Source of the DNA: Gemmatimonadota bacterium
Lineage (GTDB): Bacteria; Gemmatimonadota; Gemmatimonadetes; Palauibacterales; KS3-K002
Direction: 5' to 3'
Assembly (NCBI GenBank): GCA_039586755.1
Contig: JBDHJU010000040.1
Coordinates: 1,885-65,884 of the forward strand
DNA: 64,000 nt
The notes below the pieces were generated by a model that worked only from the letters and a program-made list of their open reading frames with translations, was not told the origin of the DNA and did no database searches. The translations under genes were made by a program, and so were the position numbers. Below are positions 6,112 through 27,777 of this stretch, piece after piece (position 1 is the first letter of the stretch; the number at the start of each line of letters is the position of its first letter).

Positions 6112-6603
6112 GTGTCGGACTCTGCCAGGCGCCAGCTACTTGTTGAGGTCGGGGGGTGTCTGTTCGCCGCCGCCCCCGACGAGGTTCGCGAGGTGATGGA
6201 TCGGACCGAGGCGACGCCGGTCCCCGGAGCGATACAGGGTGTGCTGGGTCTTCTGAATCGGCGTGGCAAAGTCATCGTCGCCGGAGAACTGGGTGTGTTC
6301 CTGGGTGTGGACTCGAATCCTGGCGAAGAGTCGGCGCTCGTGGTTTTCGCCGACGGCGATAGGCGGATCGCTTTGATGGTGGACCGGGTGATAGGCATGG
6401 CTCCCTATGCGGGGACCGAGCTCGACGTCGAGAGTGATTTGCTGGAGGCGCTTGGTGCCCGAGAGATGGCGTTAGGAGTGGGGCAGTTCGGGCCGCGGCC
6501 GTACATAAGGCTCGATGTGCCGGCGATCTTCGCACGTGTTTTCGATCAGGCCGGAGACCGTGATCGGTCGATACGGCTCGGATCGACGGTAAGACAGGAG
6601 TGA
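6112..6603 (+). CDS. cheW: CheW-like coupling protein
   Basis: Single CheW domain (LLVEVGGCLFAAAPDEVREV...PGAIQGVLGLLNRRGKVI...ALMVDRVIG). GTG at 6112 follows GAGGG; 6091 and 6103 are alternative starts. The upstream part of the ORF-track entry overlaps rluD. Confidence 0.8.
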   Translation: MSDSARRQLLVEVGGCLFAAAPDEVREVMDRTEATPVPGAIQGVLGLLNRRGKVIVAGELGVFLGVDSNPGEESALVVFADGDRRIALMVDRVIGMAPYAGTELDVESDLLEALGAREMALGVGQFGPRPYIRLDVPAIFARVFDQAGDRDRSIRLGSTVRQE

Positions 6604-6606
6604 TTC

Positions 6607-6969
6607 ATGAGCCGCACGGTGCTGATTGTAGACGACGCGATCTTCATGCGGACGATGATCGCTGACATCCTCAAGGGCGCGGACTTCGAGGTCGTGGGTG
6701 AGGCTTCCTCCGGGGCGGAAGCCGTTGAGAAGTATAAGGAGCTCAAGCCTGATCTGGTGACCATGGACATCGTGATGCCCGACATGGGTGGGATCGATGC
6801 GGTTCGCGAGATCATAGAGTTCGACCCCGACGCCAGGATCCTGATGTGCAGCGCAATGGGCCAGCAGGGTCTGGTGGTCGAGGCCATTCAGGCCGGTGCC
6901 CGAGACTTCGTCGTCAAGCCGTTCCAGCCCTCAAGGGTACTCGAGGCAGTGCAACGCTTGTTGGGATGA
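6607..6969 (+). CDS. cheY: CheY-like single-domain response regulator
   Basis: 120 aa REC domain with the acidic pocket (VDDA), phospho-acceptor Asp (VTMDIVMPDMGG), conserved Ser (MCSAMG) and Lys (VVKPF). Confidence 0.93.
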   Translation: MSRTVLIVDDAIFMRTMIADILKGADFEVVGEASSGAEAVEKYKELKPDLVTMDIVMPDMGGIDAVREIIEFDPDARILMCSAMGQQGLVVEAIQAGARDFVVKPFQPSRVLEAVQRLLG

Positions 6970-8549
6970 GCCAGCAGCAGAAATACGCCGAGCTCTTTGC
7001 AGCCGAGGCGCGCGAGCATCTGGCGGAGATGGGTCGCGCGCTCGTTGCTCTAGAAGAGGAACTGGCAGCGGCGATGGGCTACGAGGTTCCGACACGGCTC
7101 GCCCACAACATTGAGTCGGTGCTCGACGAGTTGAGGTCGGGCAGGCGGAAGGTAGGCGCCAAAGTCGTGGACCTTCTGTTGGAGACTTCCGATCTCCTCG
7201 AGGGTGCGGTCGAGGCTACCGTGGCCGGCAAAACGCCGGCCGATCCGTCTTCTGCGATTGAGCGACTGGTACTCTGGCGACTGGCCGACGAAGGTGTGGC
7301 GCAGCAACAGCCACCGGCGGAGGAAACGAGTGCAGCTGAGCAACCATCGCCGGCGTACGAGGCGCAGCGCGTCGCGGCCCCCACCTCGCGACGCTCAGAC
7401 AGCAGTCGCTTGCGCGTTGACATCCGCCGCCTCGATGCACTGATGAACCTGATGGGCGAGTTGATGATCCTGCGCGGCGAACTGAAAGCCCTGGCGGATC
7501 AGCTGGGCGCCGAGTCGCTTCAGGATGCGGTGGAGCGTGCCGGCAGGTTCATCGGCGAGATGCAGGCGCACGTAGTCGGAAGTCGGATGGTGCCTGTTTG
7601 GCAGATCTTCGATCGTTTCCCGCGCCTGGTGCGCGATGCCTCGCGTTCGGTGGGGAAGGAGATCGAGCTCAAGATTACCGGTAAACAACTCGAGCTCGAC
7701 CGATCACTACTAGATGCTATAAGCGATCCACTCGTTCACCTGCTGCGCAACGCTGTGGACCACGGCATCGAGCCTGCTGAAGAGCGCGAGCGCGCCGGTA
7801 AGCCGCGAGTCGGACGTATCGAGCTCGCTGCCCAGCGCGAGCGCTCGCGTCTGGTGATCACCATCCGTGACGATGGCCGGGGCATCGATCGCGAGGTTGT
7901 GGTCGAAAAGGCCAGGCGCGAGGGGCTTCTGGGGGCCGGCGAGGAACCGACGGACCAGATGCTGTTTCGAATCATGGCGCGACCGGGATTCTCGACGGCT
8001 GCGCAGATTACCACGCTGTCCGGCCGCGGAGTCGGGCTCGACGTCGTCGAGACCACCATCCGGGGGCTCGGTGGCTCGGTCGGCTTCAGGAGCGAGCCAG
8101 GTTCCGGCACTTCGTTCCGTCTCGATCTCCCGCTGACCCTGGCCATCCTGCGCGCTCTGATCGTTGAGGTGGACGGTCAGGTCTATGCCGTACCCGCCAC
8201 ATTCACGCGGGAGAGTTTCGAGGTCGAGGAGGAGGCCGTGGAGCGGGCGCACGGTCAGGAGTGGGTTCACTGGGCCGGCGAGCGCGTGCCTCTGACGCGC
8301 CTGCGGACTCTGTTCAACGGTGGAGAGGGCAACGGATCGTCGAAGGACGGAGTCGGCTTCCTGAATCTCGTCGGTCTCGAGTTCGGGGACTCGCGCATGG
8401 TTATCTCGGTCGACGAGTTCCTGGGCGAAGAGGAAATAGTCATCAAGCCATTCGATCCCCCGCGCGGCGCTGTACCCGTGTTCTCCGGTGCTATCGTCCG
8501 GCCGGATGGACGACCGGCCTTGGTGCTGGACGTCGGTAACCTGTCGTGA
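6966..8549 (+). CDS. cheA: CheA-like histidine kinase with atypical P1 and no P2 domain
   Basis: ATGA overlap with cheY. Has the dimerisation segment RVDIRRLDALMNLMGELMI, N-box HLLRNAVDHGIE, G1 DDGRGID, G2 GRGVGLDVV and a C-terminal CheW-like P5. The N-terminal Hpt-like bundle lacks the HxxKG phospho-His helix (see findings). Confidence 0.9.
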   Translation: MSQQQKYAELFAAEAREHLAEMGRALVALEEELAAAMGYEVPTRLAHNIESVLDELRSGRRKVGAKVVDLLLETSDLLEGAVEATVAGKTPADPSSAIERLVLWRLADEGVAQQQPPAEETSAAEQPSPAYEAQRVAAPTSRRSDSSRLRVDIRRLDALMNLMGELMILRGELKALADQLGAESLQDAVERAGRFIGEMQAHVVGSRMVPVWQIFDRFPRLVRDASRSVGKEIELKITGKQLELDRSLLDAISDPLVHLLRNAVDHGIEPAEERERAGKPRVGRIELAAQRERSRLVITIRDDGRGIDREVVVEKARREGLLGAGEEPTDQMLFRIMARPGFSTAAQITTLSGRGVGLDVVETTIRGLGGSVGFRSEPGSGTSFRLDLPLTLAILRALIVEVDGQVYAVPATFTRESFEVEEEAVERAHGQEWVHWAGERVPLTRLRTLFNGGEGNGSSKDGVGFLNLVGLEFGDSRMVISVDEFLGEEEIVIKPFDPPRGAVPVFSGAIVRPDGRPALVLDVGNLS

Positions 8550-8580
8550 TACGCGGATCCACCAGTGAGGGATGGCGTGA

Positions 8581-9198
8581 ATGAACGCGAAGCGTGAGCT
8601 CCATGACAAAGAGCTTGATGCTCTCAAGGAAGTAGCGAACATCGGCGCAGGCCACGCGGCGACGGCACTAAGCCAGCTGACGAGTCGCCGCATCATGATC
8701 GATGTGCCGAAGGTGCAGATTTGCACCATCGAGGAAGCAGCCTCCGCCGTTGGCGATGGTGGGGTGGTTGCCGCCGTGCTCATGCAGGTGTTGGGTGACC
8801 TGACCGGTCGCAGTCTGTTGCTGTTCGAGAAGAATCTGGCGTTGCAGCTCGCCGACATGTTGCTCACTAGGGAGCCCGGGACGACCAAGGTCTTTGCCGA
8901 GTTCGAGCAGTCGGCGCTCAAGGAGACGGCGAACATCTTGACCGGCGCGTACCTGAACGGGCTGTCCGACATGCTGGGGCTAATGCTGATACCGTCGGTG
9001 CCGAGCCTTGCCATCGACCTCAGCACAGCGATTCTGTCCACGGCCTACCTCGACTTCACCTACGAGCAAGGAAACGTCATCATCCTGGACACGCGGTTTC
9101 GATTCGACCCCGGCGACGCCAGCATGTCGGGTCATTTCGTCTTGTTGCCGGACCCGGCGAGTCTTGAAGTGATACTGAAGGCTGCTCGTTTGCTGTGA
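8581..9198 (+). CDS. cheC: CheC-family CheY-P phosphatase
   Basis: Both ExxN-x22-P active-site motifs are present: KEVAN...(22 aa)...P and KETAN...(22 aa)...P. Confidence 0.85.
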   Translation: MNAKRELHDKELDALKEVANIGAGHAATALSQLTSRRIMIDVPKVQICTIEEAASAVGDGGVVAAVLMQVLGDLTGRSLLLFEKNLALQLADMLLTREPGTTKVFAEFEQSALKETANILTGAYLNGLSDMLGLMLIPSVPSLAIDLSTAILSTAYLDFTYEQGNVIILDTRFRFDPGDASMSGHFVLLPDPASLEVILKAARLL

Positions 9199-11897
9199 AT
9201 AAGACGACGGTTCACTCCGAGGGCGACATTAGCATCCTCCGCGCGCTGGCTCAGCGCATCGATCCGGGGGATGCGGGGGCGTATAACAACCTGGGAGTGG
9301 TGTTCTACCAAAAGGGCCTATACGAGGAAGCGATCGAGCAGTTTCGTCGCGCGCTGGCGATTGATGGTAAGATGGAGGTGGCGCGACGGAACCTGGACAT
9401 CGCCTATCATCAGACGGGCTACTACGATCGTCGTATTGCCGAGCTGATCGCTCGCCTGCGCGCCAATGAGGATGACGACGACGCCCGCTACAGCCTCGCC
9501 GAAGCATACTTCAACACCGGCCGCTTCGACGAAGCCATCGTTCAGTATGAGAAGCTGATCGAGAAAAAGCCCGGCAACGTTCGGGTTCTGTTGAGGCTCG
9601 GTGCCGCCGAGAAGCAACGCGGCGAGTTGAAACGGGCCATTGAATGGTTCGAGAAGGCCCGCGAGCTTCAACCCGACCGCCCCTTCATCTACTATTCGTT
9701 GGGCGAGATCCTCTACAACCAGGGGATGAACGAGGAGGCTATCGCCCACCTCCGCAAAGCGCTGCAGCTGAATCCTTCCGTCGCCGAGGTGCACCACCTG
9801 CTGAGCTTCGTCTACGGCGACATCGGTGCGGCCGATAAGGCAGCCGAGCATGCGGCGCATGCCGCTGAGCTCAACCCGGCGGCCACACGGGTACGGGCGA
9901 ACCTCTCGCTCGATCGTTACAGTCCGGCCCAGTACGTCGAGCTCACCGGTAAGGTGGCTGCGCCGAGCGTCGAGGGGGCAAAGGCGTTTGCGCACTACAG
10001 TTTGGGGATCGCCTTTCGAGCACGCGGACTCTACGAAGAGGCGCGACAAGAGTTCACGCGCGGGCGCGAGGCCGGCGAAGATCCGACCTTGATCGATCAA
10101 GCGGAAGCCGAGTTGGCGCTTCTCGAGGGCGACGCGGAGGGGGCATTGGCGAGATACGATTCGCTACTCGCCAGAGTCAGCAACAGCCCCAAGGTCTGGA
10201 ACGAGCGCGGTGTTACGCTCCACCAGGTCGGACGTCTGGACGAGGCCGAGGAGAGCTACCGTCGCGCCCTGGACCTCGACGAAGGCTACGCTTTGGCCTG
10301 GAACAACATTGGGGTGGCGGCCGCGCACCGCGGCGACCAAGAGAGTGCCGAGGCCGCGTTCCGGCGGGCGCTCGAGATTCAAGCCGAGCTGAACGACGCG
10401 CGACTCAATCTGGGGCTGCTCTGGGTGCTGGCCGATAGGCACGATAGCAGTCTTCAGCTGCACCGCGATATGCTGAAGGTGGATTCGAGTCGTGCGGACG
10501 CATGGAACGGCTTGGGCTCGGCGCTGATGGCTATGGACCGGTTCGCCGAGGCGCGCAACGCGTTTGCGCGTGCCGTGGAGGCAAACCCGAACTTCCCGCC
10601 GGCACGCTACAATCTGAGCTTCGCGCTCGCTCGCCTTGGTGAGCATGAGGATGCCCTGCGTGAGACCAAGATGGCGCTGGAGCTCGATCCGTATTACACA
10701 GCGCCACGCTACAAGCTGTCGATCGATCTGCAGTATGAGGGTGGCGACGTGTGGGCGCCGGAGCTGGCGGCACCAGAACGAGTCGCGCCGAAGGATGACG
10801 GGGTCCGTGATTTCGATTTCGATCCGGCGGAGTTGGAGTCGGTCTTCCACGAACTCGAGGGGCCGGAAGCTGAAGAGAAGGAGGCGGCGCCCAGCGAGAC
10901 GTTCGAGTTGGCTCGGGACCATCTCGCAAACGGCCTCTACGATGGGGCGCTCTCCGAAGCCGCACGAGTTCTGCGCGAGGGTGGCGATGCGGGCGAAGGC
11001 GCGCTGATCATCGGTGAGGTCTATCTGCAGCGCGGGCTCTACGGCGAGGCGCTCGAGCGCTTCGAGGAAGCGCGCGCCCTGCGACCTGACGATCCGCAGG
11101 TACTCGCCGGCGCTACCCGCTGTCTGTTGCAGCTTGATCGCGTCGATGAGGCACGGCTGGCGGCGGAAGCCTTGCAGCCGAAGGCGGGCCAGGATGTCAC
11201 GCATCTGCTGATGGTCGGTGAGGCACTGACCCGGTCGGGCGAAGCGAAACGAGCGATGGAGGTGCTCGACCTGGCGGCGCAGCTTGCTCCGCAGGACCCG
11301 GTCGTGCATCGACAGATCGCCAGGGCCGCCCTAGCGGTGGGCAACCGGCGGCGCGCCCGGGATGCCTACCGAAAGGCGATAGCCGAGGACCCGGACTTCA
11401 CGGCGGCGCGTGTGGAATTCGGGCGCCTGTTGGTCGAAGAAGGTGCGTACAGCGAAGCGGAGGCCGAGATTCGACAGGCCCTCGAGCTCATGCCTACCTA
11501 TGCCGACGGCGCCCTGGTGCTCTCCGATTTGCTGAATCGCCAAGGTCGGGGTCGTGAGGCCGTGAACTTGCTCGTGGGTTTCTTGGAAACCGAGCCGTAC
11601 AACCTCGACGCCCTGGTGCTGCTGAGTGAGGCGTTGCTCGCCGAGGGTAAGCGTCGCGACGCGGAACAGGCGCTCGTTCGAGTGGTGCGCTTCGACCCGG
11701 AGCGGCCCGCCGCGCTGTTTCGCCTCGGAGAGCTCACTGCCGAGTCGGGTCGTTACCGCGACGCGCTCGGCTATTGGCGCCGACTCATAGAGGCGGCTCC
11801 GGATAGCGAGTACGCCGCTCGCGCCCGGGTGCAGGCGCGCGTTGCGTTGGGGATGGGTAGCGCCTTTGAGGGCCAGACAGCAGGGAGCGGTGCCTGA
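9195..11897 (+). CDS. Large TPR-repeat protein (900 aa)
   Basis: GTGA overlap with cheC. TPR-like 34-aa repeats (A..Y..AL.L.P....A..NLG) run along the whole length. No signal peptide or TM segment seen. Confidence 0.8.
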   Translation: MNKTTVHSEGDISILRALAQRIDPGDAGAYNNLGVVFYQKGLYEEAIEQFRRALAIDGKMEVARRNLDIAYHQTGYYDRRIAELIARLRANEDDDDARYSLAEAYFNTGRFDEAIVQYEKLIEKKPGNVRVLLRLGAAEKQRGELKRAIEWFEKARELQPDRPFIYYSLGEILYNQGMNEEAIAHLRKALQLNPSVAEVHHLLSFVYGDIGAADKAAEHAAHAAELNPAATRVRANLSLDRYSPAQYVELTGKVAAPSVEGAKAFAHYSLGIAFRARGLYEEARQEFTRGREAGEDPTLIDQAEAELALLEGDAEGALARYDSLLARVSNSPKVWNERGVTLHQVGRLDEAEESYRRALDLDEGYALAWNNIGVAAAHRGDQESAEAAFRRALEIQAELNDARLNLGLLWVLADRHDSSLQLHRDMLKVDSSRADAWNGLGSALMAMDRFAEARNAFARAVEANPNFPPARYNLSFALARLGEHEDALRETKMALELDPYYTAPRYKLSIDLQYEGGDVWAPELAAPERVAPKDDGVRDFDFDPAELESVFHELEGPEAEEKEAAPSETFELARDHLANGLYDGALSEAARVLREGGDAGEGALIIGEVYLQRGLYGEALERFEEARALRPDDPQVLAGATRCLLQLDRVDEARLAAEALQPKAGQDVTHLLMVGEALTRSGEAKRAMEVLDLAAQLAPQDPVVHRQIARAALAVGNRRRARDAYRKAIAEDPDFTAARVEFGRLLVEEGAYSEAEAEIRQALELMPTYADGALVLSDLLNRQGRGREAVNLLVGFLETEPYNLDALVLLSEALLAEGKRRDAEQALVRVVRFDPERPAALFRLGELTAESGRYRDALGYWRRLIEAAPDSEYAARARVQARVALGMGSAFEGQTAGSGA

Positions 11898-13030
11898 TGC
11901 CGATCGAAGGCTCACTGCGTGAGTTCGCGCTCACCGACATTTTTCAGCTGCTTCACCTGTCCCGGAAGACGGGTGAGCTGAGGATCGTACGTGAGCCATC
12001 GGGCAGCACCGGATTGGTGATATTCAACCATGGGACCGTGGTAGGGACGATCCTCGACGAGGCCAGTCCTCGCCTTGGATACATGTTGCTGAACGCGGGT
12101 AAGATAACCGAGGCGGATCTTCACAGGGCTGATCAGCTCCATTCGGAGGACCCGAGCCGGTCCTGGACGGATATCCTGACATCGATGGAGGTCGTCGAGT
12201 CCTCGGAAATGGACAGGTTCATCCGGTTCCAGGTCGAGGAAACCGCCTACGAGATTCTCGGTTGGGAGGATGGCAAGTTCTCGTTCGAGGAACGCGACGT
12301 CGACGACGCGGAATGTGTCACCCTGATTCCGGTCGAGTCGATCTTGATGGAAGGAGCCCGCCGGGCGGATGAGATGTCGGCGCTGGCCACTACGATCGAG
12401 AGTCCGACCGCCGTACCGCGCTTGTCTGATCGAGCCGGCGAGGGCGGTATGATCGATCTCGCGCCGGAAGAATGGGAGATCCTCGGTCGCATCGATGGCA
12501 CGAGCGACGTCAAATCGATCGCCTGGACCCTGGGCCGCAACGAGGTCGAGGTCAGCAAGATAATTTCGAAGCTCGCGGAGCTGAGCCTGGTCGAGATCGG
12601 CGACGAGGAGGAGATCGCCCGCACCCGACCTCCCCACGAGGTGTCTCTCGATGAGGCGGAGGGTCTGCTGGAGAGCGGCGAGGTGCGCGAGGCGCGACGC
12701 CATATCACGTCGGTGCTGAAGCGACACCCGGAAGAACCGCGTGCACATCTACTGGCGGCCAGGGCGTTGGAGCGATCCGGTGATTGGCTCGGTGCTACCG
12801 AAGCATACGAGAGAACCCTGGCAATCGACCCGTTGGCTGTCGAAGCGCGACAGAGGCTTGGCCTGGTGCGTTTGAAGATGGGGGACATAGAAGGTGCAGC
12901 GCGTGAGTGGACGGCGTACCTGCGAATGGCGCCGGATTCGCTTGACAAGAGCACCGTTAACCGGGCGATAGAGGCCGTGCGCGAACTACAGATCGTTTTG
13001 GACGTGTTGGATGGACGGGAAGACGCGTAG
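11897..13030 (+). CDS. PATAN (DUF4388) domain protein with C-terminal TPR
   Basis: N-terminus IEGSLREFALTDIFQLLHLSRKTGELRI matches the DUF4388/PATAN signature. C-terminus carries TPR repeats. 1-nt TGATG overlap with the upstream gene. Confidence 0.75.
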   Translation: MPIEGSLREFALTDIFQLLHLSRKTGELRIVREPSGSTGLVIFNHGTVVGTILDEASPRLGYMLLNAGKITEADLHRADQLHSEDPSRSWTDILTSMEVVESSEMDRFIRFQVEETAYEILGWEDGKFSFEERDVDDAECVTLIPVESILMEGARRADEMSALATTIESPTAVPRLSDRAGEGGMIDLAPEEWEILGRIDGTSDVKSIAWTLGRNEVEVSKIISKLAELSLVEIGDEEEIARTRPPHEVSLDEAEGLLESGEVREARRHITSVLKRHPEEPRAHLLAARALERSGDWLGATEAYERTLAIDPLAVEARQRLGLVRLKMGDIEGAAREWTAYLRMAPDSLDKSTVNRAIEAVRELQIVLDVLDGREDA

Positions 13031-13817
13031 ATCGCTGCAGAGTCTGAGCGAAGAGGTCGCCACGAACCCGAACTCGACGGCGTTTGTGGAGCTGGCCGCG
13101 GCATACAGGGAGCGTGGCGACAGCGAGCGCGCTCTGCGGCTCTGCCTGCGCGGTCTCCAGCGGCATCCGACACACGTTGAGGCCCATTTCGAGCTCGGCC
13201 TGATATATGAGGCGCGTGGCGAACGGGAGCTGGCGCTGGACGAGTGGGGAATCGTACGGCAGCTAGCGCCAGACCACGTGGCCTCGCGTTTGGCGCTGAT
13301 CCGGCTCTATCTGGACGAGGAGCGATACGTCGATGCGGAGATCGAGCTGAAGGCTGCTCGGGCGCTCGCACCCGCCGACAGTGCGGTCGCCGGGCTGTGG
13401 CAGGCGCTCCAGGCCGCGCAACGCGATGCGGTTCCTGACCAGGCAGGGGGCACCGCGACCGCCGGTCTCTTCGCTGCCCTCGAGAGCGAGCAGCCCGGAA
13501 CGCTCGGGGTGATGCTGGTCGGCGGAGACGGTCAGCTGCTGGAGGGTCGGATGACGCGACGCGGTGCCGAGTCGGATCGGATGCTCGGCGTGACCCTGAA
13601 TGGTGCCAATTCCGAGGCGACGCGCGTCGCGTCTTATCTAGGCTTGGGCGAGTTGCAGGGTATGATCATCGAGAGCGCGGTGGCTCGGCTCACGGTATCC
13701 CCTGTAAGCGATGGGATTGTGATCGTGGCGACGCGCGCTGACGTCCCGGCCGGCCAGGCGGCCCGGCTCGTGCAGCGCGCCCGCGAGATCGCCGAGACTC
13801 ATCTGGGTGACGAATAG
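13011..13817 (+). CDS. TPR - Roadblock/LC7 fusion protein
   Basis: The N-terminal ~120 aa are TPR. The C-terminal ~110 aa (LGVMLVGGDGQLLEG...LQGMIIESAVARLTVSPVSDGIVIVATRADVPAG) have the Roadblock/LC7 pattern. Confidence 0.7.
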   Translation: MDGKTRRSLQSLSEEVATNPNSTAFVELAAAYRERGDSERALRLCLRGLQRHPTHVEAHFELGLIYEARGERELALDEWGIVRQLAPDHVASRLALIRLYLDEERYVDAEIELKAARALAPADSAVAGLWQALQAAQRDAVPDQAGGTATAGLFAALESEQPGTLGVMLVGGDGQLLEGRMTRRGAESDRMLGVTLNGANSEATRVASYLGLGELQGMIIESAVARLTVSPVSDGIVIVATRADVPAGQAARLVQRAREIAETHLGDE

Positions 13818-13819
13818 CG

Positions 13820-14182
13820 ATGAGGACTCCGTACGGGGACCTGTTGGCTAGAGTGATGAGTTCGCCAGGCGTTCGTGGTGCCCTCGTGGTCGCGGTGCGA
13901 GACGGCCTTGTGGTCGACGGTCGTGTGCACGTCGGTGTTGAGGGTGAAGCGGTGGCGGCGCTCGCCGCATCGCTCTACCGCCGCGCTTGTCGAGCGACCG
14001 GCGCCACCGAGGGCAAGGGTCGCTTCGTCGAGCTGGAGGCCGACGGCGGCCGCATCATGATCGCTGGCAAGAACGACCTGGCTATGATGGCGGTCCTCCA
14101 ACGACGCGCGAACGCGGGGCAGGCGCGGGTGGCCGTGCAGCGGGCCGCCGATGACCTGGCGGCGCTGGAGGGGCAGGCGTAG
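13820..14182 (+). CDS. Roadblock/LC7 domain protein
   Basis: 120 aa. VRGALVVAVRDGLVVDG...FVELEADGGRIMIAGKNDLAMMAVLQRRANAG is a typical Roadblock/LC7 fold signature. Confidence 0.72.
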   Translation: MRTPYGDLLARVMSSPGVRGALVVAVRDGLVVDGRVHVGVEGEAVAALAASLYRRACRATGATEGKGRFVELEADGGRIMIAGKNDLAMMAVLQRRANAGQARVAVQRAADDLAALEGQA

Positions 14183-14671
14183 ATGGAGCGCCTGGAAATC
14201 AAGCAGATACAGGACGCCTTCGATGAACCGCTCCGAGTTTTCGTCCGCGAGTCGGGCGTCGGGCTGGCCGTGCTGATCAATCGCAGCGGCCAGGTCCTGG
14301 CGCAGCACGGCTTCGACAAAGTTTTCGACCTCGTCGGTGTCGCGTCGCTCGCTGCCGGTATTAACGCATCGAGTCGCGCCCTCGCGAATCAACTCGGCGA
14401 AGAGCAGTTCGAGCACCTTCACCATGCGGGGCGAGCGCGGCAGCTGTTTCTCGGCCACTTCGACTCGGGCGCCGGACAGCTGATGCTCGTGGCGGTGTTC
14501 GACGACCGCTCGTCCATCGGTCTGGTTAGGCTGTTCTTCGAGCAGTTCGTCGGCGGGATACGGCGACTACCATCGATGGATGCATCGCGAAAGGCTGTGA
14601 GTGCGGCGGAGTTCGAGGCAGAGCTCGAAACAAGCCTCGACAAGTTCTTCCAAGATCTGATAGGCGGCTGA
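14183..14671 (+). CDS. mglB: MglB-like Roadblock/LC7 GTPase-activating protein
   Basis: By-eye alignment to Myxococcus MglB over the full length: AVLINRSGQVLAQHG, SLAAGINASSRALANQLGEEQF, MLVAVFDDRSSIGLVRL. Lies immediately upstream of mglA, as in Myxococcus. Confidence 0.85.
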   Translation: MERLEIKQIQDAFDEPLRVFVRESGVGLAVLINRSGQVLAQHGFDKVFDLVGVASLAAGINASSRALANQLGEEQFEHLHHAGRARQLFLGHFDSGAGQLMLVAVFDDRSSIGLVRLFFEQFVGGIRRLPSMDASRKAVSAAEFEAELETSLDKFFQDLIGG

Positions 14672-14673
14672 CG

Positions 14674-15297
14674 ATGTCGCTCGTGAACTACGCAACACGA
14701 GAGATTACCTGCAAGATCGTCTACTACGGTCCGGGACGGTCTGGTAAGACAACGAACTTGCAGTACATCCACAGTCGCGTCCCTTGGGATCGGAAAGGCG
14801 AGATGGTCTCGCTGGCAACCGAAGCGGACAGGACTCTCTTCTTCGATTTCCTTCCCCTGGAGCTCGGCCAGATCTCCGGGTTCACGACGCGTTTCCAGCT
14901 GTACACGGTGCCGGGCCAAGTCTACTACAATGCGACGCGCAGGCTCGTCCTGCAGGGTGCCGACGGAGTGGTCTTCGTCGCCGACAGCCAGAGGCCGCAG
15001 ATCGATGGTAACATCGAATCGCTGCGCAACCTACACGAGAACCTGCTCGAGCACGGGATCGACATTCGTGACATCCCGGTGGTGATACAGTACAACAAGC
15101 GCGACCTACCTAACGTCTTCAGCATCGAACAGCTGGAGGAGGAGCTGAACTTCAGGAATGTGCCGAGTCATCCGGCGTCGGCACTATTGGGGGAGGGTGT
15201 GTTCGATACACTCAGGTCAGCGAGCGAGGGGGTTCTGAAGAAACTGGCGAGGAAGCTCGAGGTCTCGGCCGCTGACACGATGGGAGAGCCAGGGTGA
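14674..15297 (+). CDS. mglA: MglA-family Ras-like small GTPase
   Basis: Near-colinear with Myxococcus MglA: CKIVYYGPGRSGKTTNLQYI (P-loop), DRTLFFDFLPL (intrinsic Arg), YTVPGQVYY (catalytic Gln), QYNKRDLPN (NKxD). Confidence 0.95.
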   Translation: MSLVNYATREITCKIVYYGPGRSGKTTNLQYIHSRVPWDRKGEMVSLATEADRTLFFDFLPLELGQISGFTTRFQLYTVPGQVYYNATRRLVLQGADGVVFVADSQRPQIDGNIESLRNLHENLLEHGIDIRDIPVVIQYNKRDLPNVFSIEQLEEELNFRNVPSHPASALLGEGVFDTLRSASEGVLKKLARKLEVSAADTMGEPG

Positions 15298-16472
15298 GCG
15301 CTGCCATCGATCCGTCGTTGACCTTCGCCAATTTCGTGGTCGGGCAGGAAAATCGCCTGGCATGCGAGGCGGCGCGCACCGCCTCTGAGTCGCCGGGCTC
15401 TGCCTATAACCCCCTGTTCATCTACAGCGATACCGGTCTCGGAAAGACCCATTTGCTGATCGCGCTCGCCAATCGTGCCAAAGAGTTGCAGCCGGATCTG
15501 AAGGTCGTCTATGTGCCGCTCGAAGAGCTGATGCGGGCGCTGTCCAGCACCGACGACTCCGATTCGTCATACCGGGACGCGGATATCCTCCTGATCGACG
15601 ATCTGCAGTTCATCGGTGACCACCGTCAGGGTCACCAGATACTCTTTCACCTCCTCGATCACCTGCTGATGGCGGGTAAGCAGGTAGCCCTCGCCTGTGA
15701 CCGCCCGCCGTTGGAGTTGGGCGAGCTCGACGACCGGCTGCTGTCACGTTTCAGTGGCGGCCTGGTTGTTGACATAGGGCGGCCGACACTGGAAACGCGA
15801 CGGGCGATTCTAGAGCTGCGTCTTTCCGCCTTTGGCCAGGACCTGAGAGCGGAGGTCGTCGACGCGATCGCGCGGCGCGCGATAGAGAACGTGCGCCAGT
15901 TGAATGGGGCGCTGAACAGAATACTTGCGGCTCAGAGGTCGGAGGGGCGCGAGGTAGAGGCCGATGAGGTGGATCGCCTGCTCGCAGATGTAGTTTCGGA
16001 TGCCGACATGCCGTGGCTGGCCGAAGCGGCGCAGCGTACGGGAGCCGAGTTCGAGGATTTTCTTACCGACGTCTCCAGCGCGGTCGAGGAAGCGCTCGGT
16101 TCTCCGAAATGGCGCGAGGATCTCGCCCGGGCGATCCTCAAATGGGAGGGCGAAGGATACGTTACTAGTCGGCTCGAGTCGTATCTCGAAGGTGATGAGA
16201 CGGTCGACGCCCAAGAGGTGGTTGCCGCCTACGAGCGTGACGTCGCGACGCTCAGATCGATCGAGGAAGAACTGGGCCGGCTCGATGCCGAGGTCCAGGA
16301 CAGTCAGGTCGTGAAGGACCCAGAGCGTATCGAGCAGGCCAGGCAACTGCTGGAGGAAGCGCGCCGTTCCAACCTGGCGGTCGACGATTTCTTCTTCGAT
16401 GATGAGAAGGTTGTCTGGGAGTGGCCGGTAATAGAGGAGCAACTGATGGAGGGCTGGAGCGATGGCTATTAA
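15294..16472 (+). CDS. DnaA-like AAA+ ATPase (domain III only) with an acidic C-terminal extension
   Basis: LTFANFVVGQENRLA, YNPLFIYSDTGLGKTHLL (Walker A), ILLIDDLQF (Walker B), RLLSRFSGGLVVDI and VRQLNGALNRI match DnaA/Hda domain III. No domain I and no domain IV helix-turn-helix. GTGA overlap with mglA. Confidence 0.8.
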   Translation: MSAAIDPSLTFANFVVGQENRLACEAARTASESPGSAYNPLFIYSDTGLGKTHLLIALANRAKELQPDLKVVYVPLEELMRALSSTDDSDSSYRDADILLIDDLQFIGDHRQGHQILFHLLDHLLMAGKQVALACDRPPLELGELDDRLLSRFSGGLVVDIGRPTLETRRAILELRLSAFGQDLRAEVVDAIARRAIENVRQLNGALNRILAAQRSEGREVEADEVDRLLADVVSDADMPWLAEAAQRTGAEFEDFLTDVSSAVEEALGSPKWREDLARAILKWEGEGYVTSRLESYLEGDETVDAQEVVAAYERDVATLRSIEEELGRLDAEVQDSQVVKDPERIEQARQLLEEARRSNLAVDDFFFDDEKVVWEWPVIEEQLMEGWSDGY

Positions 16473-18093
16473 AGGCAGCCTTAAAGAAGCCAGCCTGCCT
16501 GATGTTCTCCAGCTCCTCACCATGGGAGGTAAGACGGGCTGCCTATCTGTCACGGACCGGCAGAGCTTCGGTTACATCTATTTCGAGGAAGGCCGGATTA
16601 TCTACGCCTCGCTGCTCAATCGACGCGACCGGATCGGGGATATCCTGGTGCGGGAGGCTGTGATTTCGCGTGAACAGTTGGACGCAGCGATCGAGGAGCA
16701 GAGTGCCACTCGCGACGGCCGACGCTTGGGCGAGATCCTCAAAGACAGCGGGTATATCGAGCAGGACACACTGCACAGGTGGGTGCGCTATCAGATCGAG
16801 GAGGCAGTGTACCACCTGTTCACCTGGAGCCAGGGCACGTTCTACTTCGAGCCGGGCCAGCGCCCCGATCGGGAGCAGATACTGGTCTCGATCGACCCCG
16901 AGAGCCTGTTGCTGGAGGGAGCGCGGCGAGTTGACGAATGGAGCCAGATAGAGAAGAAAGTCTCGTCGCTCGAGTTGGTCTTTTCGTTGCACCCTGAGCG
17001 GTCACAAGCGATATCGTCGCTCAACCTCACCGAGGAACAGCAAAAGCTACTCCCGTTGCTGGATGGTAAGCACAGCGGTTGGGACATCATCGAAGAGACC
17101 GCGCTGGGTGAGTTCGAGGTAGGTAAGGCGCTCTTCGGTTTGGTGACTGCCGGGTTGATCCGCCGGGTTGGAAGGCGCGAACGGAAATCTCCGCGGGCCG
17201 AGGCTCGGGCCAGGGTGAATGAGCACCGTAACCTGGGTGTGGCGTTCTACCGAACCGGAATGTACGACGAGGCTGTACGTGAGTTGAGGCAGGTGCTCGA
17301 GCTCGAGCCCGAGGCACTGGATGCCGAGTTCTTCTTGGGGCTCGTGGCACTCCGCCGCGGTGACCTGGATGCGGCCGAGAAGAAGTTCGTCGAGATCATG
17401 GAGGCCGGCGCGGTCCAACCCGCGCTATACAACGACCTCGCCCTAGTGCTGGCGGGCCAGGGCAAACTGGGGCAGGCGGCAGCGCTGCTCGACGAGGGAC
17501 TCGAGAAGACCCAAGCTCACCCGAAGCTTCTGCTGACAAAGGCTGTGTGCCAGTTGAAGCTAGGCGATTCCGCGGCATCGAAGAGCACACTCGACGCTTT
17601 CGCAGCGGTCGCGAGCGGGGAGTTGCCGCCTCTGTACTACTCGACGCGCGCGCTGGCCGAGGCGATGTCAGCCGACCTGGATTCGGCGGCTGAGATGGCG
17701 GCCGAAGGTGTGGAACGGCATCCGAGCTCGGCAGCGCTTGCCAACAACGCCGGCGTGATCATGGAGAGGAAGGGCGACCTGGAGGGTGCCCGGGTGCTGT
17801 ACGAGAAGGCGTTCGAGCAGGACTCGGCGCTCCCACAAGCGTCCAAGAATCTGGGTGACCTTCTGTATCGAGAGGGCCTGTACGACAAAGCTGCCGAGGC
17901 CTACAAGCGGGCACTGCGTGCCAACCCGAATCTCGGAGACGACGTGTACGCCAAGCTGGGCAACGTCTACTACAAAGGGCGCGATCGCGAGAAGGCAGTC
18001 GAGATGTGGAGGCGAGCGCTTGAAATCAACCCCGCCAACGAGGTCGTGCGCACGAACCTTGAATTCGTGAAGGGCGATGCCGGCGACGGGTGA
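16462..18093 (+). CDS. PATAN (DUF4388) domain protein with C-terminal TPR array
   Basis: N-terminus IKGSLKEASLPDVLQLLTMGGKTGCLSV...IYFEEGRIIYA is the DUF4388/PATAN signature. The ~300 aa C-terminus is TPR. Confidence 0.78.
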   Translation: MAIKGSLKEASLPDVLQLLTMGGKTGCLSVTDRQSFGYIYFEEGRIIYASLLNRRDRIGDILVREAVISREQLDAAIEEQSATRDGRRLGEILKDSGYIEQDTLHRWVRYQIEEAVYHLFTWSQGTFYFEPGQRPDREQILVSIDPESLLLEGARRVDEWSQIEKKVSSLELVFSLHPERSQAISSLNLTEEQQKLLPLLDGKHSGWDIIEETALGEFEVGKALFGLVTAGLIRRVGRRERKSPRAEARARVNEHRNLGVAFYRTGMYDEAVRELRQVLELEPEALDAEFFLGLVALRRGDLDAAEKKFVEIMEAGAVQPALYNDLALVLAGQGKLGQAAALLDEGLEKTQAHPKLLLTKAVCQLKLGDSAASKSTLDAFAAVASGELPPLYYSTRALAEAMSADLDSAAEMAAEGVERHPSSAALANNAGVIMERKGDLEGARVLYEKAFEQDSALPQASKNLGDLLYREGLYDKAAEAYKRALRANPNLGDDVYAKLGNVYYKGRDREKAVEMWRRALEINPANEVVRTNLEFVKGDAGDG

Positions 18094-18886
18094 TGACACC
18101 GCTTATGCTGCACTGTTCGCGAAGATCGAGCGCGAGCGGGGCTTTCGTGGGAATCTCTACCGGCAGAAGTGCTTGCGCCGTAGGGTCGGCGTACGGATGC
18201 GCGCTCGCGGTCTTACGAGCATCGATGACTACTCGGCGCTGCTCGATACCGATCCTGCCGAATACGACTGGCTTCTGCGCGCCCTGACCATCAACGTCAG
18301 CAAGTTTTTCCGCAACAAGGAAACGTGGGACGTTATCGGCAACGAGTTGCTGCCAGGGCTGCTGGCCCGGGGGGAGCCGGTTCTTCTGTGGAGCGCCGGA
18401 TCGGCGGCCGGCGAAGAGGCGTACAGCCTGGCGATCCTGGTGCGGGAGCGACTGGCGGCCGGCGGGCAGTGTGAGGTGAACGGTGTGCGTATCATCGGTA
18501 CCGATATCGATGAGGATAGTCTCGAGCTCGCCCGCTCGGCGGAATACCCGGAGGTCGCCCTGGTCGAGACACCGGAGGAGGTTCGGCGACGCTGGTTCGT
18601 TCCCGGGCCCATGAACCGGCTTAAGGACCCGATACCTTCTATGGTGGAATTCCGAAAAGTCGACATCCTGGAAAGCAGCCCGGATTTCGAGGCGGATCTC
18701 ATCCTCTGCCGTAACCTGCTCATATACCTGGACCGACCGGCCCAGGGCCGTGTCTTCGAGATGTTTGTCGATGTTTTACGACCGGGGGGCTACCTGGTAT
18801 TGGGCCGGGTGGAGATGCTCGGCCGGGAGGTGAAGGAGCACTTCGACGTGGTTGACGGGCGAGAGAGGATATACCAGCGGCGGTGA
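18077..18886 (+). CDS. cheR: CheR chemotaxis methyltransferase
   Basis: FFRNKETWD, the SAM-binding LLWSAGSAAGEEAYSLAI, and DLILCRNLLIYL. Confidence 0.9.
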   Translation: MPATGDDTAYAALFAKIERERGFRGNLYRQKCLRRRVGVRMRARGLTSIDDYSALLDTDPAEYDWLLRALTINVSKFFRNKETWDVIGNELLPGLLARGEPVLLWSAGSAAGEEAYSLAILVRERLAAGGQCEVNGVRIIGTDIDEDSLELARSAEYPEVALVETPEEVRRRWFVPGPMNRLKDPIPSMVEFRKVDILESSPDFEADLILCRNLLIYLDRPAQGRVFEMFVDVLRPGGYLVLGRVEMLGREVKEHFDVVDGRERIYQRR

Positions 18887-19359
18887 GGATCTTCGTTCCG
18901 ATGGGCGATCGTCGCGTTGGTCAGGGCGAGGGGACGCTATCGATCACAGGCCTAGGCTCTTGTGTGGCGATCGTTTTGTACGATGAGGCGAGCCACGTGG
19001 GGGGCCTGGCACACGTGCTCCTGCCGGACCGCTCTTTCTCGAAGCGCGACCGCTGCTGGCTGTTCGTGACGGAGGCCGTCCCGGCGCTGCTCGATGAGCT
19101 GGCGGAAGCCGGGGCCGTGCGTAGTCGTCTCACCGCACGGCTGGTTGGTGGTGCCGCCATGTTTGAGGACCTGGCGCCGCAGGACAGGCCTAACATCGGC
19201 CGGCGCAACATCTCGGCGGCGCGAAAGGTGCTCGCCAGGGTTGGGATCCCCATCGTCGCCGAGGATGTGGGCGGCGGTTTCGGCCGCTCGATCGACTTTG
19301 AATTGTCGAACGGTCGTATAGTTGTCACCTCGCAGGGGAAGAGCCGTGTCGAAATCTGA
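18883..19359 (+). CDS. cheD: CheD chemoreceptor glutamine deamidase
   Basis: ITGLGSCVAIVLYD...GGLAHVLLP carries the catalytic Cys/His context. 158 aa. GTG at 18883, or ATG at 18901. Confidence 0.88.
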   Translation: MRIFVPMGDRRVGQGEGTLSITGLGSCVAIVLYDEASHVGGLAHVLLPDRSFSKRDRCWLFVTEAVPALLDELAEAGAVRSRLTARLVGGAAMFEDLAPQDRPNIGRRNISAARKVLARVGIPIVAEDVGGGFGRSIDFELSNGRIVVTSQGKSRVEI

Positions 19360-20434
19360 GCGCGGCGCATCCGGCAGCACCGTCCTGGTGGTAGATGACA
19401 GTGTGTTCATGCGGCGCATGATCTCGGACATGATCGATCGCTTCCCTGGGTTCCACGTGGCGGGTACAGCGTCCGACGGTAAGGAAGCATTGCGGCGCAT
19501 AGAAGAGCTCGCGCCCGACGTGGTGACGCTAGATATCGAGATGCCGCGTCTCGATGGGTTCGGTGTGCTCGAGCGCGTCATGTCGACACGACCGCGGCCA
19601 ATCGTAGTCTTCTCGGCCTACACCGATACCGGATCGACTGCTGCGCTGCGGGCACTCGATCTCGGCGCCGTCGACTTTGTAGCCAAGCCCTCAGGACCGA
19701 TTTCCTTCGACCTCGGCCGAGTGGAAGCACGGCTTTACGAGGCTTTGCGGGCCGCAGTGGCCGCAGATGTCGAGGTGCTGATCGCCGAACGGACGTTGGA
19801 GGCCGAACCTGTGGTCGCCCCAGTCATCGGCGGCGAAGCGGCGGTGGCCATCGCCGCTTCCACCGGGGGGCCGCGGGCGCTTTCACAGGTTCTCCGCGCC
19901 TTACCTTCCGACCTGGGTGCAGCGGTGCTCATCGTTCAGCATATGCCGCCGGGTTTCACATCGACGCTGGCGGAACGCTTGAGCGGCTTGGCGTCGCTAC
20001 CAGTGGAGGAGGCGAGTGGGGGTGAGACCGTAAGGCCGGGCCGGGTCTGGCTCGCTCCCGGCGACTTCCACATGCGGGTGAGGCGGATCGACGGGACGGT
20101 GAAGATCACGCTCGATCAGCGCGAGTCGATGTGGGGCACGCGACCGGCGGCAGACGCACTCTTTCCAAGCGTCGCCGAGGCCTTCGGGGGTCGCTCGGTG
20201 GGCGTTGTGCTGACCGGTATGGGTCGAGACGGTGCCAACGGTCTGGCGGCGATCCGGGCGAGCGGCGGTCGAACGATAGCCCAGGACAAGGCGACCAGTG
20301 TTGTCTACGGGATGCCCGGTCGCGCCGTGGAGCAGGGAGCGGCCGAACACATTGTCTCTCTGGACGGGATAGCGGGTGCCATCGTCGAGTGCCTCGCTGA
20401 ACTTCCGGCCCGCGAGGCCGACGCGAGCCAATGA
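19346..20434 (+). CDS. cheB: CheB methylesterase (REC + esterase)
   Basis: REC domain (VLVVDDS, VTLDIEMP, FVAKP) plus esterase Ser (ASTGGPRAL), His (VQHMPPGFT) and Asp (GMGRDGA). GTG at 19346 is preferred over the TTG at 19322. Confidence 0.9.
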   Translation: MSKSERGASGSTVLVVDDSVFMRRMISDMIDRFPGFHVAGTASDGKEALRRIEELAPDVVTLDIEMPRLDGFGVLERVMSTRPRPIVVFSAYTDTGSTAALRALDLGAVDFVAKPSGPISFDLGRVEARLYEALRAAVAADVEVLIAERTLEAEPVVAPVIGGEAAVAIAASTGGPRALSQVLRALPSDLGAAVLIVQHMPPGFTSTLAERLSGLASLPVEEASGGETVRPGRVWLAPGDFHMRVRRIDGTVKITLDQRESMWGTRPAADALFPSVAEAFGGRSVGVVLTGMGRDGANGLAAIRASGGRTIAQDKATSVVYGMPGRAVEQGAAEHIVSLDGIAGAIVECLAELPAREADASQ

Positions 20435-21405
20435 GCAACCTGATCACGTTCCGATTGGGCGATTCGCGGTTTGCGATCCCGGCCGACGTGGTAACCGAGA
20501 TCGTCGAGGCCGGCTCGATCGAGCACCGCCTGCCTGGGGACAAGGGTGCCCAAGTTGGTCTGGCCCGCGTCCGCGACCGCTGGATACCTGTGGTCGAGCT
20601 GGCCGGCGCCATCAGCGGCGTGCCGAGTTTGGATCCGGATTCACCGGACGCATTGCTGCTGGTGCTGGGCCGGGAGCGTGGCCGGTTGGGCCTGCGAGTT
20701 CAGGGCCCGGGCGAAGTCGTCCAGGGAAGGGCGGCACGGTCGCCAAATGACCGGTCGGATGACTTGCTCGAGCTAGATGGTGAGATGGTCCGTTTTGTCG
20801 ACCCGGCGGCGCTTGTCGCTTCTCGGGCCGAGCTGCTTGGAGAGAAGGGAGAATCCATGGTGGATCGAGATGTCGCTGCCGAGCCGCTGCGCGTGGTGAG
20901 GTTCCAGCTCGGCGACGACGAATTCGGTATCGATGTGATGAAGGTCTTCGAGGTGATTCCGGTGCCGAAGGTGCGCCCCGTACCCAAAGCGCCCGCCTTC
21001 GTCGAAGGTGTCGTCGACATTCGCGACTCGATTGTCCCGGTAATCGACATGCGCAAACGCTTTAGTCTGCCGCCGAGAGAAACGGACGAGTCCAGCCGGC
21101 TGCTGATTGTAGCGATCGGCGAATCCCGGGCCGGTTTGGTCGTCGACACGGTTCCCGGCGTGGTACCTTTAGCCGAAGACGCGGTGAGCACGCCGCCTGA
21201 CTTCTTCCGCGGCTTGGCAGGAAGGTACCTCGAAGGTCTCGCTAAGGACGATGATCGCATGATCATCATGCTCAACGTCGGCGAAATTCTCAGCTCGAAG
21301 GAGAAGATAGCCCTCGAGAAGGTCGTCGATTCCGCGAAGCCCGCAGGCCGCGCCAAGGGTAAGAAGCGCGCGCCGCGGCGCAGCAAGAAGAAGTCGGAAG
21401 GTTGA
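20431..21405 (+). CDS. Tandem CheW-CheW coupling protein with a polybasic tail
   Basis: Two CheW domains (ITFRLGDSRFAIPADVV... and VVRFQLGDDEFGIDVMKVFEV...VEGVVDIRDSIVPVIDMRKRF). C-terminal tail is AKGKKRAPRRSKKKSEG. Confidence 0.85.
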   Translation: MSNLITFRLGDSRFAIPADVVTEIVEAGSIEHRLPGDKGAQVGLARVRDRWIPVVELAGAISGVPSLDPDSPDALLLVLGRERGRLGLRVQGPGEVVQGRAARSPNDRSDDLLELDGEMVRFVDPAALVASRAELLGEKGESMVDRDVAAEPLRVVRFQLGDDEFGIDVMKVFEVIPVPKVRPVPKAPAFVEGVVDIRDSIVPVIDMRKRFSLPPRETDESSRLLIVAIGESRAGLVVDTVPGVVPLAEDAVSTPPDFFRGLAGRYLEGLAKDDDRMIIMLNVGEILSSKEKIALEKVVDSAKPAGRAKGKKRAPRRSKKKSEG

Positions 21406-22256
21406 CCGGCATCGACCCGCTGTCGCCACTGCTAGGCCGATACCGTGAGCTGGAAGACGCTCTGGCCCGCGCTCAGGATGCGGCGGAATCCGCTCGCTTG
21501 GGTGCGATGGCCTCGGAACTTTTGGATACCCTGAAACAGTTGGAAGGGCGATTGGCGGAGTTGCGGGAGATGCTCCGCCAGTTGATGGACCGTCACGGAA
21601 TTCTGCCTGATTTACCAGCAGGCTCGGTGGGTCTTCCACCGGCGGCGGCGGAGCGCCGAAGTGATCTGGGCGGCGGCCAGGTGGCAAAAGGGTGGAACCT
21701 GCTTCGCTCTGCCGACTATGGTGGTGCGATTGAGTTGTTGAAGGAGGCGCTCGACCTGGCGCCGGACGATCCGGGTGTCCTATCGTCCCTGGGCTGGGCA
21801 CAGACGATATCGCAGGCTTACGACGAAGCGCTGGCTACGTACCAGCACTTGTTGGCGGTTAGCCCAGAGGACACGCTGGCCCGCGTCAACCTGGGGTACA
21901 TTTGCCTGAGGAAAGGGATCTACGGCGAGGCGATCGAGCACCTGTCGAAGGCGATCCGGGGCTCGACCGATCCGAGGGCGGGTATGTACGGTCGCTACTA
22001 TCTCGGCCTGGTGTACCTGGCGCGAGAGATGTACGAGGACGCGGAATCGTTCCTGCACGAGGCCGTGGAGCTGGACCCGACGATGAGCGAGGCGTCGTTC
22101 CAGCTGGGACGAGCACGCTACCTTGCCGGCCGGAAAGCGGAAGCGATCTCGGCCTGGAAAGATGGGGCTGCGGCGCCGCAGGGCGACTTCTGGGCAAGCC
22201 GTTGTGCCGAGGCGGCACGGAGCGCCGAGTCCGGCGTCCAGCCATTGCTCGACTGA
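21402..22256 (+). CDS. Coiled-coil + TPR protein
   Basis: 284 aa with a helical/coiled-coil N-terminus followed by TPR repeats. TTGA overlap with the upstream gene. Confidence 0.7.
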   Translation: MTGIDPLSPLLGRYRELEDALARAQDAAESARLGAMASELLDTLKQLEGRLAELREMLRQLMDRHGILPDLPAGSVGLPPAAAERRSDLGGGQVAKGWNLLRSADYGGAIELLKEALDLAPDDPGVLSSLGWAQTISQAYDEALATYQHLLAVSPEDTLARVNLGYICLRKGIYGEAIEHLSKAIRGSTDPRAGMYGRYYLGLVYLAREMYEDAESFLHEAVELDPTMSEASFQLGRARYLAGRKAEAISAWKDGAAAPQGDFWASRCAEAARSAESGVQPLLD

Positions 22257-25727: not shown

Positions 25728-25756
25728 TTGACGTAGTGGGGACATGGCACTAGCTT
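25728..25756 (+). promoter_or_regulatory. Sigma70-like promoter for the dcw cluster: TTGACG-17 nt-TAGCTT, with flanking TGGG repeats
   Basis: -35 at 25728-25733, -10 at 25751-25756. TGGG(G/T) motifs sit at 25737, 25756, 25768 and 25778, about 10-12 nt apart, resembling MraZ-box repeats. Confidence 0.5.
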
Positions 25757-25863
25757 GGGGGTCGGAGTGGGGTAAAGTGGTGAGAAGTGCATCTCTCGCC
25801 CACCTTTCGGTGCCCGGATCCCCGCCGACCGGGCCCAAGCGAGCCTTCCGGGGGAGGTTTTAC

Positions 25864-26295
25864 TTGACCGGCTTCTTGGGGAGCTACCTCCATCAGCTGG
25901 ACGAGAAGGGCCGCCTGGCGCTGCCGGCGTCGTTTCGCCGCGCTGCCGGGGACGGTGGCTTCGTCCTGATCCACGCCCTGGAACCGGCGCTGTTTCTGTA
26001 TCCGGCGCGGGCCTGGGCGGTGGTGGAGGAGCGTCTCGGGGAGCTTCTGCGGCGGCAGCCCGACGCGCGGGGCAGGGTGTTGGGGCTGACGGCAAACGCG
26101 GTGGAGGTGATCCCCGACAAGCAGGGCCGGATCCTGGTACCGGAGCGTCTGCAACGGGCGGCGCAACTGGACAGTGAGGCTCTGGTCGTGGGGGTGCTGG
26201 AGAAGATCGAGATCTGGAATCCTGAGCTGTTTGAAAACACGACGAGGGAGGCCGAGGAGGGCTTTGAGGAGTTCGTTCGGCAGATCCTCGTGTGA
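25864..26295 (+). CDS. mraZ: Transcriptional regulator MraZ
   Basis: Two DxxxR-type repeats (LDEKGRLALP and PDKQGRILVP). The 143-aa length fits MraZ if the TTG at 25864 is the start. The ORF-track N-terminal extension looks non-coding. Confidence 0.88.
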   Translation: MTGFLGSYLHQLDEKGRLALPASFRRAAGDGGFVLIHALEPALFLYPARAWAVVEERLGELLRRQPDARGRVLGLTANAVEVIPDKQGRILVPERLQRAAQLDSEALVVGVLEKIEIWNPELFENTTREAEEGFEEFVRQILV

Positions 26296-26545
26296 GGTGG
26301 CAGGGCCCGGCGCTGACGGTCGAGTTGGGTTGATGGGCGGATCGTGGGGGAATCGCTCGTCTGTGATGAGAGGTGCGATGGCCGTCAGCTGCTGGACCCG
26401 GAGGATTCGGACGGTGGGCAGGTGGCAGGGGGAGGGCTGTGTGGACCTAGGGGTAGGGCAACGCCGTCTGTCCACTGTCCTGTATGTAGGTGATGGGAAG
26501 TCGTCCGGGCCCCCCGGGTGATGACCCGCTAACCCGGCAGGGGCC

Positions 26546-27478: not shown

Positions 27479-27777
27479 GGCTCCGCGGCATACTCACCGC
27501 CGTTTCGGCGATGCTGCTTTTGGCGGGGATGTTCATCGCGGTTCATCGCGGTGCTCGCGGTCGCGTCATCGCAGAGCGCGTCAGTGCGATCGACAATCAG
27601 CGGGAAACCGCGGTGGTGCGGAAGAACGAGTTGCGACAGAGGGTCGAGTACCTGCATAGTCGGTCGCGAATCGTGCACGCCGCGCAGTCGTTGGGACTCC
27701 ATCAGCCGAGCGAGGATGAGCTGGTGTACCTCGATCTGAGCGGTCTGCCATCGACAGTGTCGGGAGGCTCATTGTGA
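27475..27777 (+). CDS. ftsL: Cell division protein FtsL
   Basis: 100 aa, one N-terminal TM helix then a coiled-coil. Sits between rsmH and ftsI. ATGA overlap. Confidence 0.75.
   Translation: MRLRGILTAVSAMLLLAGMFIAVHRGARGRVIAERVSAIDNQRETAVVRKNELRQRVEYLHSRSRIVHAAQSLGLHQPSEDELVYLDLSGLPSTVSGGSL

Follow-up and report, generated by a model that had tools for sequence, protein, structure and literature searches.

A 57-bp in-frame gap removing the phospho-accepting histidine of a Gemmatimonadota CheA, probably an artefact of one metagenome assembly

In a survey of 13,673 CheAs, Hpt was a core domain, P2 was absent in more than half of all proteins, P1–P3–P4–P5 was the commonest architecture, and CheAs in which no Hpt was detected were explained either by errors of sequencing or assembly, with the gene at a contig end, or by an operon that also held a separate Hpt gene (PMC10782961). 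Besides such canonical P2-less CheAs, the systems used for comparison were as follows: (i) the split CheA of Cereibacter (Rhodobacter) sphaeroides (CheA4 core plus CheA3 P1) and other bipartite CheAs, in which the kinase core has no phosphorylatable His of its own and the Hpt is encoded in the same operon with family-wide conservation; and (ii) ChpA, the multi-Hpt Tfp-class CheA of P. aeruginosa, in which an Hpt-like helical domain has lost the conserved His by substitution within an intact bundle, while several functional Hpt domains and a C-terminal receiver are kept. Laboratory mutants of E. coli CheA (H48Q and P1 deletion) do not autophosphorylate and retain array assembly.

The window (the whole 64-kb stretch of DNA analysed here) contained a che operon in which CheW, CheY, CheC/X, CheR, CheD, and CheB accompanied the CheA under study (Table 1). 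P3 (H-kinase_dim PF02895, residues 147 to 203, 2.5e-12), P4 (HATPase_c PF02518, residues 254 to 391, 1.2e-17), and P5 (CheW PF01584, residues 397 to 526, 6.7e-19) were each above the Pfam threshold, and the P4 boxes N, G1, F, and G2 were legible in the translation (HLLRNAVDHG, DDGRGID, PGFST, and GRGVGLD, respectively); the kinase core, CheY, and the receiver domain of CheB were intact by Pfam and by reading of the sequence, as a preliminary description of this DNA had stated. Its remark that P2 was missing was likewise correct, and P2 was missing from the whole orthologous family, i.e., its lack is normal for the family and no part of the anomaly. The window thus had P3, P4, P5, and the operon partners of a canonical P2-less CheA, and sister alleles (see below) additionally had a normal P1 with His47, but the copy assembled in the window was devoid of 19 P1 residues, among them the acceptor His as well as the Lys/Gly of HTIKG. 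Hpt fell below the gathering score of 24.6 bits (the full-length protein scored 14.6 bits and its N terminus alone 22.1 bits; Pfam), a comparison with the Hpt HMM that the preliminary description had proposed as a check; NCBIfam CheA models aligned well over residues 113 to 526 and covered the N terminus only from about residue 19 to 34 on. A P1 that retained the conserved phospho-acceptor (E. coli His48) was found in the sister alleles P0001, P0122, and P0127 and not in the CheA of the window. Compared to ChpA, the window CheA harbored a single P1 remnant and no receiver domain (Pfam), and its His was removed together with most of helix B rather than substituted; compared to the split and bipartite CheAs, it had no Hpt partner in the window, and its His-less state was present in one contig only.

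Table 1. Features of the window and private deletions in the near-identical contigs (positions are those of the window; for deletions in other contigs, the equivalent window positions are given)
Contig	Feature	Position	Strand	Details	Basis
Window	cheW	6112-6603	+		Pfam CheW
Window	cheY	6607-6969	+	Response_reg 1.1e-30; receiver Asp, Ser/Thr, Lys present	Pfam; sequence read
Window	cheA as assembled	6966-8549	+	527 aa; P1 remnant, linker, P3, P4, P5; no P2	Translation
Window	P1 helix A, residues 1-32	6966-7061	+	Same as orthologues	AF2 helix 3-37
Window	Junction of private 57-bp deletion in cheA	7062-7063	+	Absent: CTGGGGACC...ATCAAGGGGA, coding PGDQASLDAIFRSVHTIKG	DNA alignment to L001, L002
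Window	Rest of P1, helices C, D, E	7063-7300	+	AF2 helices 40-57, 65-86, 95-106	PDB sequence alignments; AF2
Window	cheC/cheX-type phosphatase	8581-9198	+		Pfam CheC, CheX
Window	Block inserted inside che operon	9195-18093	+		Pfam
Window	cheR, cheD, cheB (REC + methylesterase), tandem-CheW protein	18077-21405	+		Pfam
Window	Junction of private 113-bp deletion in murG	36826-36831	+	113 bp present in L012 and L013	
L012	70-bp deletion in murB	~39113-39166			
L013	91-bp deletion in murC	38300-38385			
L020	155-bp deletion in class II Asp/Asn-tRNA synthetase gene	52857-53005			
L020	88-bp deletion at a second, separate site	53837-53924			
L014	30-bp deletion in MiaB-like radical-SAM gene	60082-60111			
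L017	24-bp deletion in MazG gene	54379-54402			
L001	99-bp deletion in 900-aa TPR gene	10304-10402			
L009	28-bp deletion in PatA_N gene	~11999-12024			

The DNA comparison with the sister contigs L001 and L002 revealed one blunt gap of 57 bp in the window, located between C at 7062 and T at 7063. The preliminary description had estimated that about 15 to 20 residues holding the phospho-His motif were absent in frame, and the alignment fixed the loss at 19 codons. The window protein was rebuilt exactly in silico from the intact allele P0122 by removal of residues 33 to 51 (PGDQASLDAIFRSVHTIKG) plus M52L, the Leu being encoded by a hybrid codon (C before and TG after the junction) that replaced Met52. 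Orthologues read ...LEEEPGDQASLDAIFRSVHTIKGMAAAMGY... across this region of the alignment, while the window read ...LEEELAAAMGY...; the acceptor motif of the intact allele was FRSVHTIKGM, containing His47. A profile made from the P1 domains of 13 orthologues matched the window protein in two blocks (positions 1 to 32 and 52 to 131) with 19 positions skipped. Junction homology at cheA was limited to an imperfect (C)TGG, no unusual GC was present at the site (GC flat at 0.53 to 0.70 around the deletion), and no repeat able to explain a graph collapse was found there.

The comparison was also applied to solved P1 structures from E. coli (8c5v and 6s1k), Salmonella (1i5n), and Thermotoga (1tqg). 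The intact allele aligned with them from end to end and placed its His47 on E. coli His48, while the alignment of the window protein with the same structures began only at about E. coli residue 54, which by sequence identifies the missing piece as the A–B loop plus the initial two-thirds of helix B, a segment that holds the acceptor His and the motif Lys/Gly. In the intact protein, His66 on helix C lies exactly 19 residues after the acceptor His47, so that a 19-residue deletion shifts it to the acceptor's place in the linear sequence. The residue numbered His47 in the assembled protein (RLAHNIES; codon at window 7104 to 7106) was accordingly His66 of the intact protein, and it corresponded to His67 on helix C of E. 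coli CheA (PDB alignments 8c5v, 1i5n, and 1tqg). This is not the phospho-acceptor position, and the K/G context was missing around it. On helix C of E. coli CheA, His67 has a helper role in structure and catalysis. The presence of a His at the canonical helix-B position, as judged by profile, was rejected: HMMER gave only a register-shifted alignment of RLAHNIE with RSVHTIK (E. coli RAAHSIK) that put His47 on E. coli His48, and it was non-significant (6.9 bits, E = 93). The structure model of the N terminus, also proposed in the preliminary description, was computed with AF2 (residues 1 to 125, 80-sequence alignment); it predicted a confident helical remnant composed of the helices listed in Table 1 (pLDDT 86), a confidence that tells little about post-deletion stability or real folding, but only helices C to E superposed on Salmonella P1 in a Foldseek search against the PDB (78 columns, E = 0.04).

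The Gemmatimonadota orthologues recovered by database search (55 to 96% identity, 540 to 555 aa) each had a precomputed Hpt match; all orthologues were single-chain proteins with an intact P1, with no conserved split architecture among them, and canonical HTIKG was present in every orthologue down to about 40% identity. In the 80-sequence alignment, H[TS][ILV]KGM was found in 79 of 79 Gemmatimonadota homologues, and the gap was confined to the window. The closest database cluster contained the 527-aa protein of the window (from one 66,208-bp contig) together with several 546-aa alleles; the entries P0122, P0001, P0127, and P0123 jointly stood for seven sister contigs, all intact and all derived from one JGI sample series (3300041075, 079, 082, 084, 085, 086, and one more). 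These sister contigs displayed 99.93 to 99.99% DNA identity to the window around cheA; the 57 bp was carried by six of the six that were fetched, and the seventh was intact at the protein level (N-terminal fragment P0123), so the cheA deletion was present in one of eight contigs. The preliminary description had named orthologues in the same gene context with a normal motif as evidence that would tell against it, and an intact cheA motif in the same gene context was indeed found in orthologues and near-identical sister contigs alike. The 22-mer just upstream of the junction further retrieved five assemblies of related species, all intact, and the scan of metagenome_contigs and genome_contigs with this flanking 22-mer gave no record of the deletion allele; a search for contigs encoding the 527-aa protein gave no record, though the cluster table lists the one contig mentioned above. 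No Logan assembly of these sample runs was present in the protein cluster, and a literature search on the sample series or the MAG accessions found nothing. As for a second Hpt, none other than that of cheA was detected in the 64-kb window when its six-frame translation was searched by hmmsearch, all filters off, using the P1 profile of the family, and no H[ST]x[KR]G or HxxKG motif was found in any credible ORF in the six frames of the window, which bears out the preliminary claim that HxxKG occurs nowhere else in the operon; within the 64-kb window, the same-operon Hpt protein required by a split or bipartite CheA was thus not found.

The pairwise comparison of the window with the near-identical contigs was extended to window 18 to 62 kb. 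Over about 224 kb of pairwise comparison, ten private deletions of 24 to 155 bp were identified in eight contigs (Table 1). None of the ten was common to two contigs, while SNPs were common to several (9740 T>G in four, 7320 G>A in three, and 17514 A>G in two), as expected of real polymorphism, and the deletions were therefore unlike inherited variants. Microhomology at the deletion junctions was 0 to 2 nt, the lengths were divisible by 3 in four of ten cases (the chance expectation), and the sequences gave no sign of selection filtering these deletions. Gene calls of murB, murC, and the Asp/Asn-tRNA synthetase gene were split or truncated in sister contigs, and several of the ten lesions shift the reading frame of essential genes and would inactivate them. 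In the window itself, the 113-bp deletion caused a frameshift after residue 177 of MurG, which was identical to the sister copy over these 177 residues, and the resulting ORF (36297 to 38735, forward strand, 812 aa) was composed of the N-terminal half of MurG, an out-of-frame stretch, and then MurC. Pfam detected the Glyco_transf_28 N-terminal domain and Mur ligase domains in this ORF but not Glyco_tran_28_C, while an intact separate murG (379 aa) and murC were present in L012 and L013 (murC of 471 aa in L012); judged against these copies, the apparent MurG–MurC fusion ORF is spurious and a product of the murG frameshift. Two further length differences were observed: (i) a 4-N run at L013 7345 to 7348 (window 25119 to 25121) stood for three real bases (CAG), and scaffold joins with tiny estimated gaps therefore exist in the data set; and (ii) a 1-bp length polymorphism was located in an intergenic A-run at window 45979, where L017 and L018 were one A longer than the window, and it was probably real variation, unlike the larger deletions, because it was common to two contigs.

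The 57-bp cheA gap was most likely an assembly or library artefact, private to one metagenome assembly; the organism's CheA would then most likely be an ordinary P1–P3–P4–P5 protein with the acceptor His47 in FRSVHTIKGM, and the deletion of the His is not, on the sequence comparison, an evolved feature. A single assembly had the allele, whereas its near-identical counterparts were intact (one contig versus seven), and comparable lesions occurred in essential genes of the same contig and of the data set with no selection signature; the frameshifted essential murG in the same contig and the eight private deletions in the sisters argued for assembly error rather than biology. The preliminary description had listed a recent deletion or an assembly error among its possible readings, and it was this one that the intact sisters, the murG frameshift, and the eight further private deletions supported. 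The cause would be that the two sides of a stretch of low coverage were falsely joined. Candidate mechanisms are the underestimation of a gap during scaffolding or gap closure, the erroneous merging of paired reads, and reliance on a chimeric read as the sole path. Counting against an artefact, the deletion was in frame in a non-essential gene and hence would be viable, the allele was publicly recorded as a called 527-aa protein on the 66,208-bp contig, and the site showed neither the repeat nor the unusual GC that would favor graph collapse. It was considered unlikely that the deletion is genuine and arose very recently in one sample, within a strain or subpopulation, as an in-frame natural phospho-site knockout: the kept reading frame, the identity of the remaining gene and operon to the intact allele, the dispensability of cheA for growth, and the still confident helical remnant of the AF2 model would all fit it, but the allele was seen in only one of eight contigs, the murG frameshift expected to be lethal indicated that the same contig holds non-biological deletions, ten such events had accumulated without sharing between samples, in-frame bias, or microhomology, and AF2 confidence is no indicator of stability after a deletion. 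Motility and chemosensory functions are commonly lost, be it adaptively or neutrally.

If the deletion were real, the P3–P5 core of this CheA would fold, bind ATP, and join CheW and receptors, with neither an acceptor His nor autophosphorylation; CheY and CheB would stay unphosphorylated, and the pathway output would be null or CheA would act as scaffold only. By analogy, the phenotype to be expected is that of the E. coli H48Q and P1-deletion mutants, but those mutants were engineered, while the window allele is probably absent from the organism altogether; even a real allele would be a strain-level loss of function only and no new signalling mechanism. That a real deletion marks a natural subpopulation with a phosphorylation-dead scaffold kinase, in a pathway otherwise intact and wired to an MglA-like GTPase/Roadblock/PatA_N module, was rated as quite improbable, its most exotic version being that the P1 remnant offers His47 (former His66) as a substitute acceptor; a scaffold or pseudokinase as an evolved state, as entertained in the preliminary description, was not supported, since the deletion was private to one contig. 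The same description had raised a non-canonical or trans-acting Hpt, and an evolved non-canonical phosphorelay of this kind would use either a His in trans (as from R. sphaeroides CheA4 to CheA3-P1, or from a separate Hpt gene) or the remaining His47. A P1-less CheA can phosphorylate free P1 in trans, and split CheAs exist (PMC10782961). RLAHNIE could also be aligned, weakly and at the non-significant score given above, on E. coli RAAHSIK. Such a relay was nevertheless held to be extremely improbable: neither the operon nor the six frames of the 64-kb window encoded another Hpt, the orthologues and sister strains were all canonical, and the sister strains were at least 99.9% identical, too close for a new relay to have had time to arise; moreover, His47 corresponded to the helper His67 on helix C without K/G context, and the Foldseek match to P1 was restricted to helices C to E.

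Several other candidates were rejected. Parallel loss of the che operon was suspected as three of seven contigs each had a different in-operon deletion, but private deletions were equally frequent in dcw-cluster genes and in the aminoacyl-tRNA synthetase, MazG, and MiaB-like genes. Repeat- or microhomology-mediated deletion and de Bruijn graph collapse were discarded because the junctions were blunt, with the imperfect (C)TGG at cheA and 0 to 2 nt elsewhere, and a GC anomaly leading to a coverage drop was discarded because GC was flat. The artefact reading, as preferred here, carries a caution: the public contig's 527-aa "CheA" resembles an intriguing His-less kinase and is most probably an assembly error. 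MAGs from these assemblies (e.g., GCA_039588635.1 and GCA_039590155.1) would have a data-quality problem, and searches of them for pseudogenes, fused genes, or degenerate signalling proteins would be led astray, as exemplified by the MurG–MurC ORF.

The che operon (6112 to 22256) was unusual in the module inserted between cheC/X and cheR, and the layout of this module was kept in the sister contigs. The inserted genes encoded a TPR protein (900 aa), a PatA_N/DUF4388–TPR protein, a TPR–Roadblock protein, two Roadblock/LC7 proteins, an MglA/Arf-like GTPase, a DnaA-like ATPase, and a protein with two PatA_N domains plus TPR; the module thus contained two PatA_N (DUF4388/PATAN)–TPR proteins, three Roadblock/LC7-domain proteins, one of them fused to TPR, and a DnaA-like AAA+ ATPase. 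No MCP gene was present in the che operon (6112 to 22256). By analogy with Frz plus MglA/MglB in Myxococcus, this gene content suggests that the che pathway may be linked to a GTPase switch for polarity or surface motility. Immediately downstream of the region with the che operon, the window harbored a complete dcw cell-division/cell-wall cluster (25750 to 43000) composed of mraZ, mraW, an ftsL-like gene, a PBP gene with PASTA, murE, murF, mraY, murD, ftsW, murG, murC, murB, an ftsQ-like gene, ftsA, and ftsZ.
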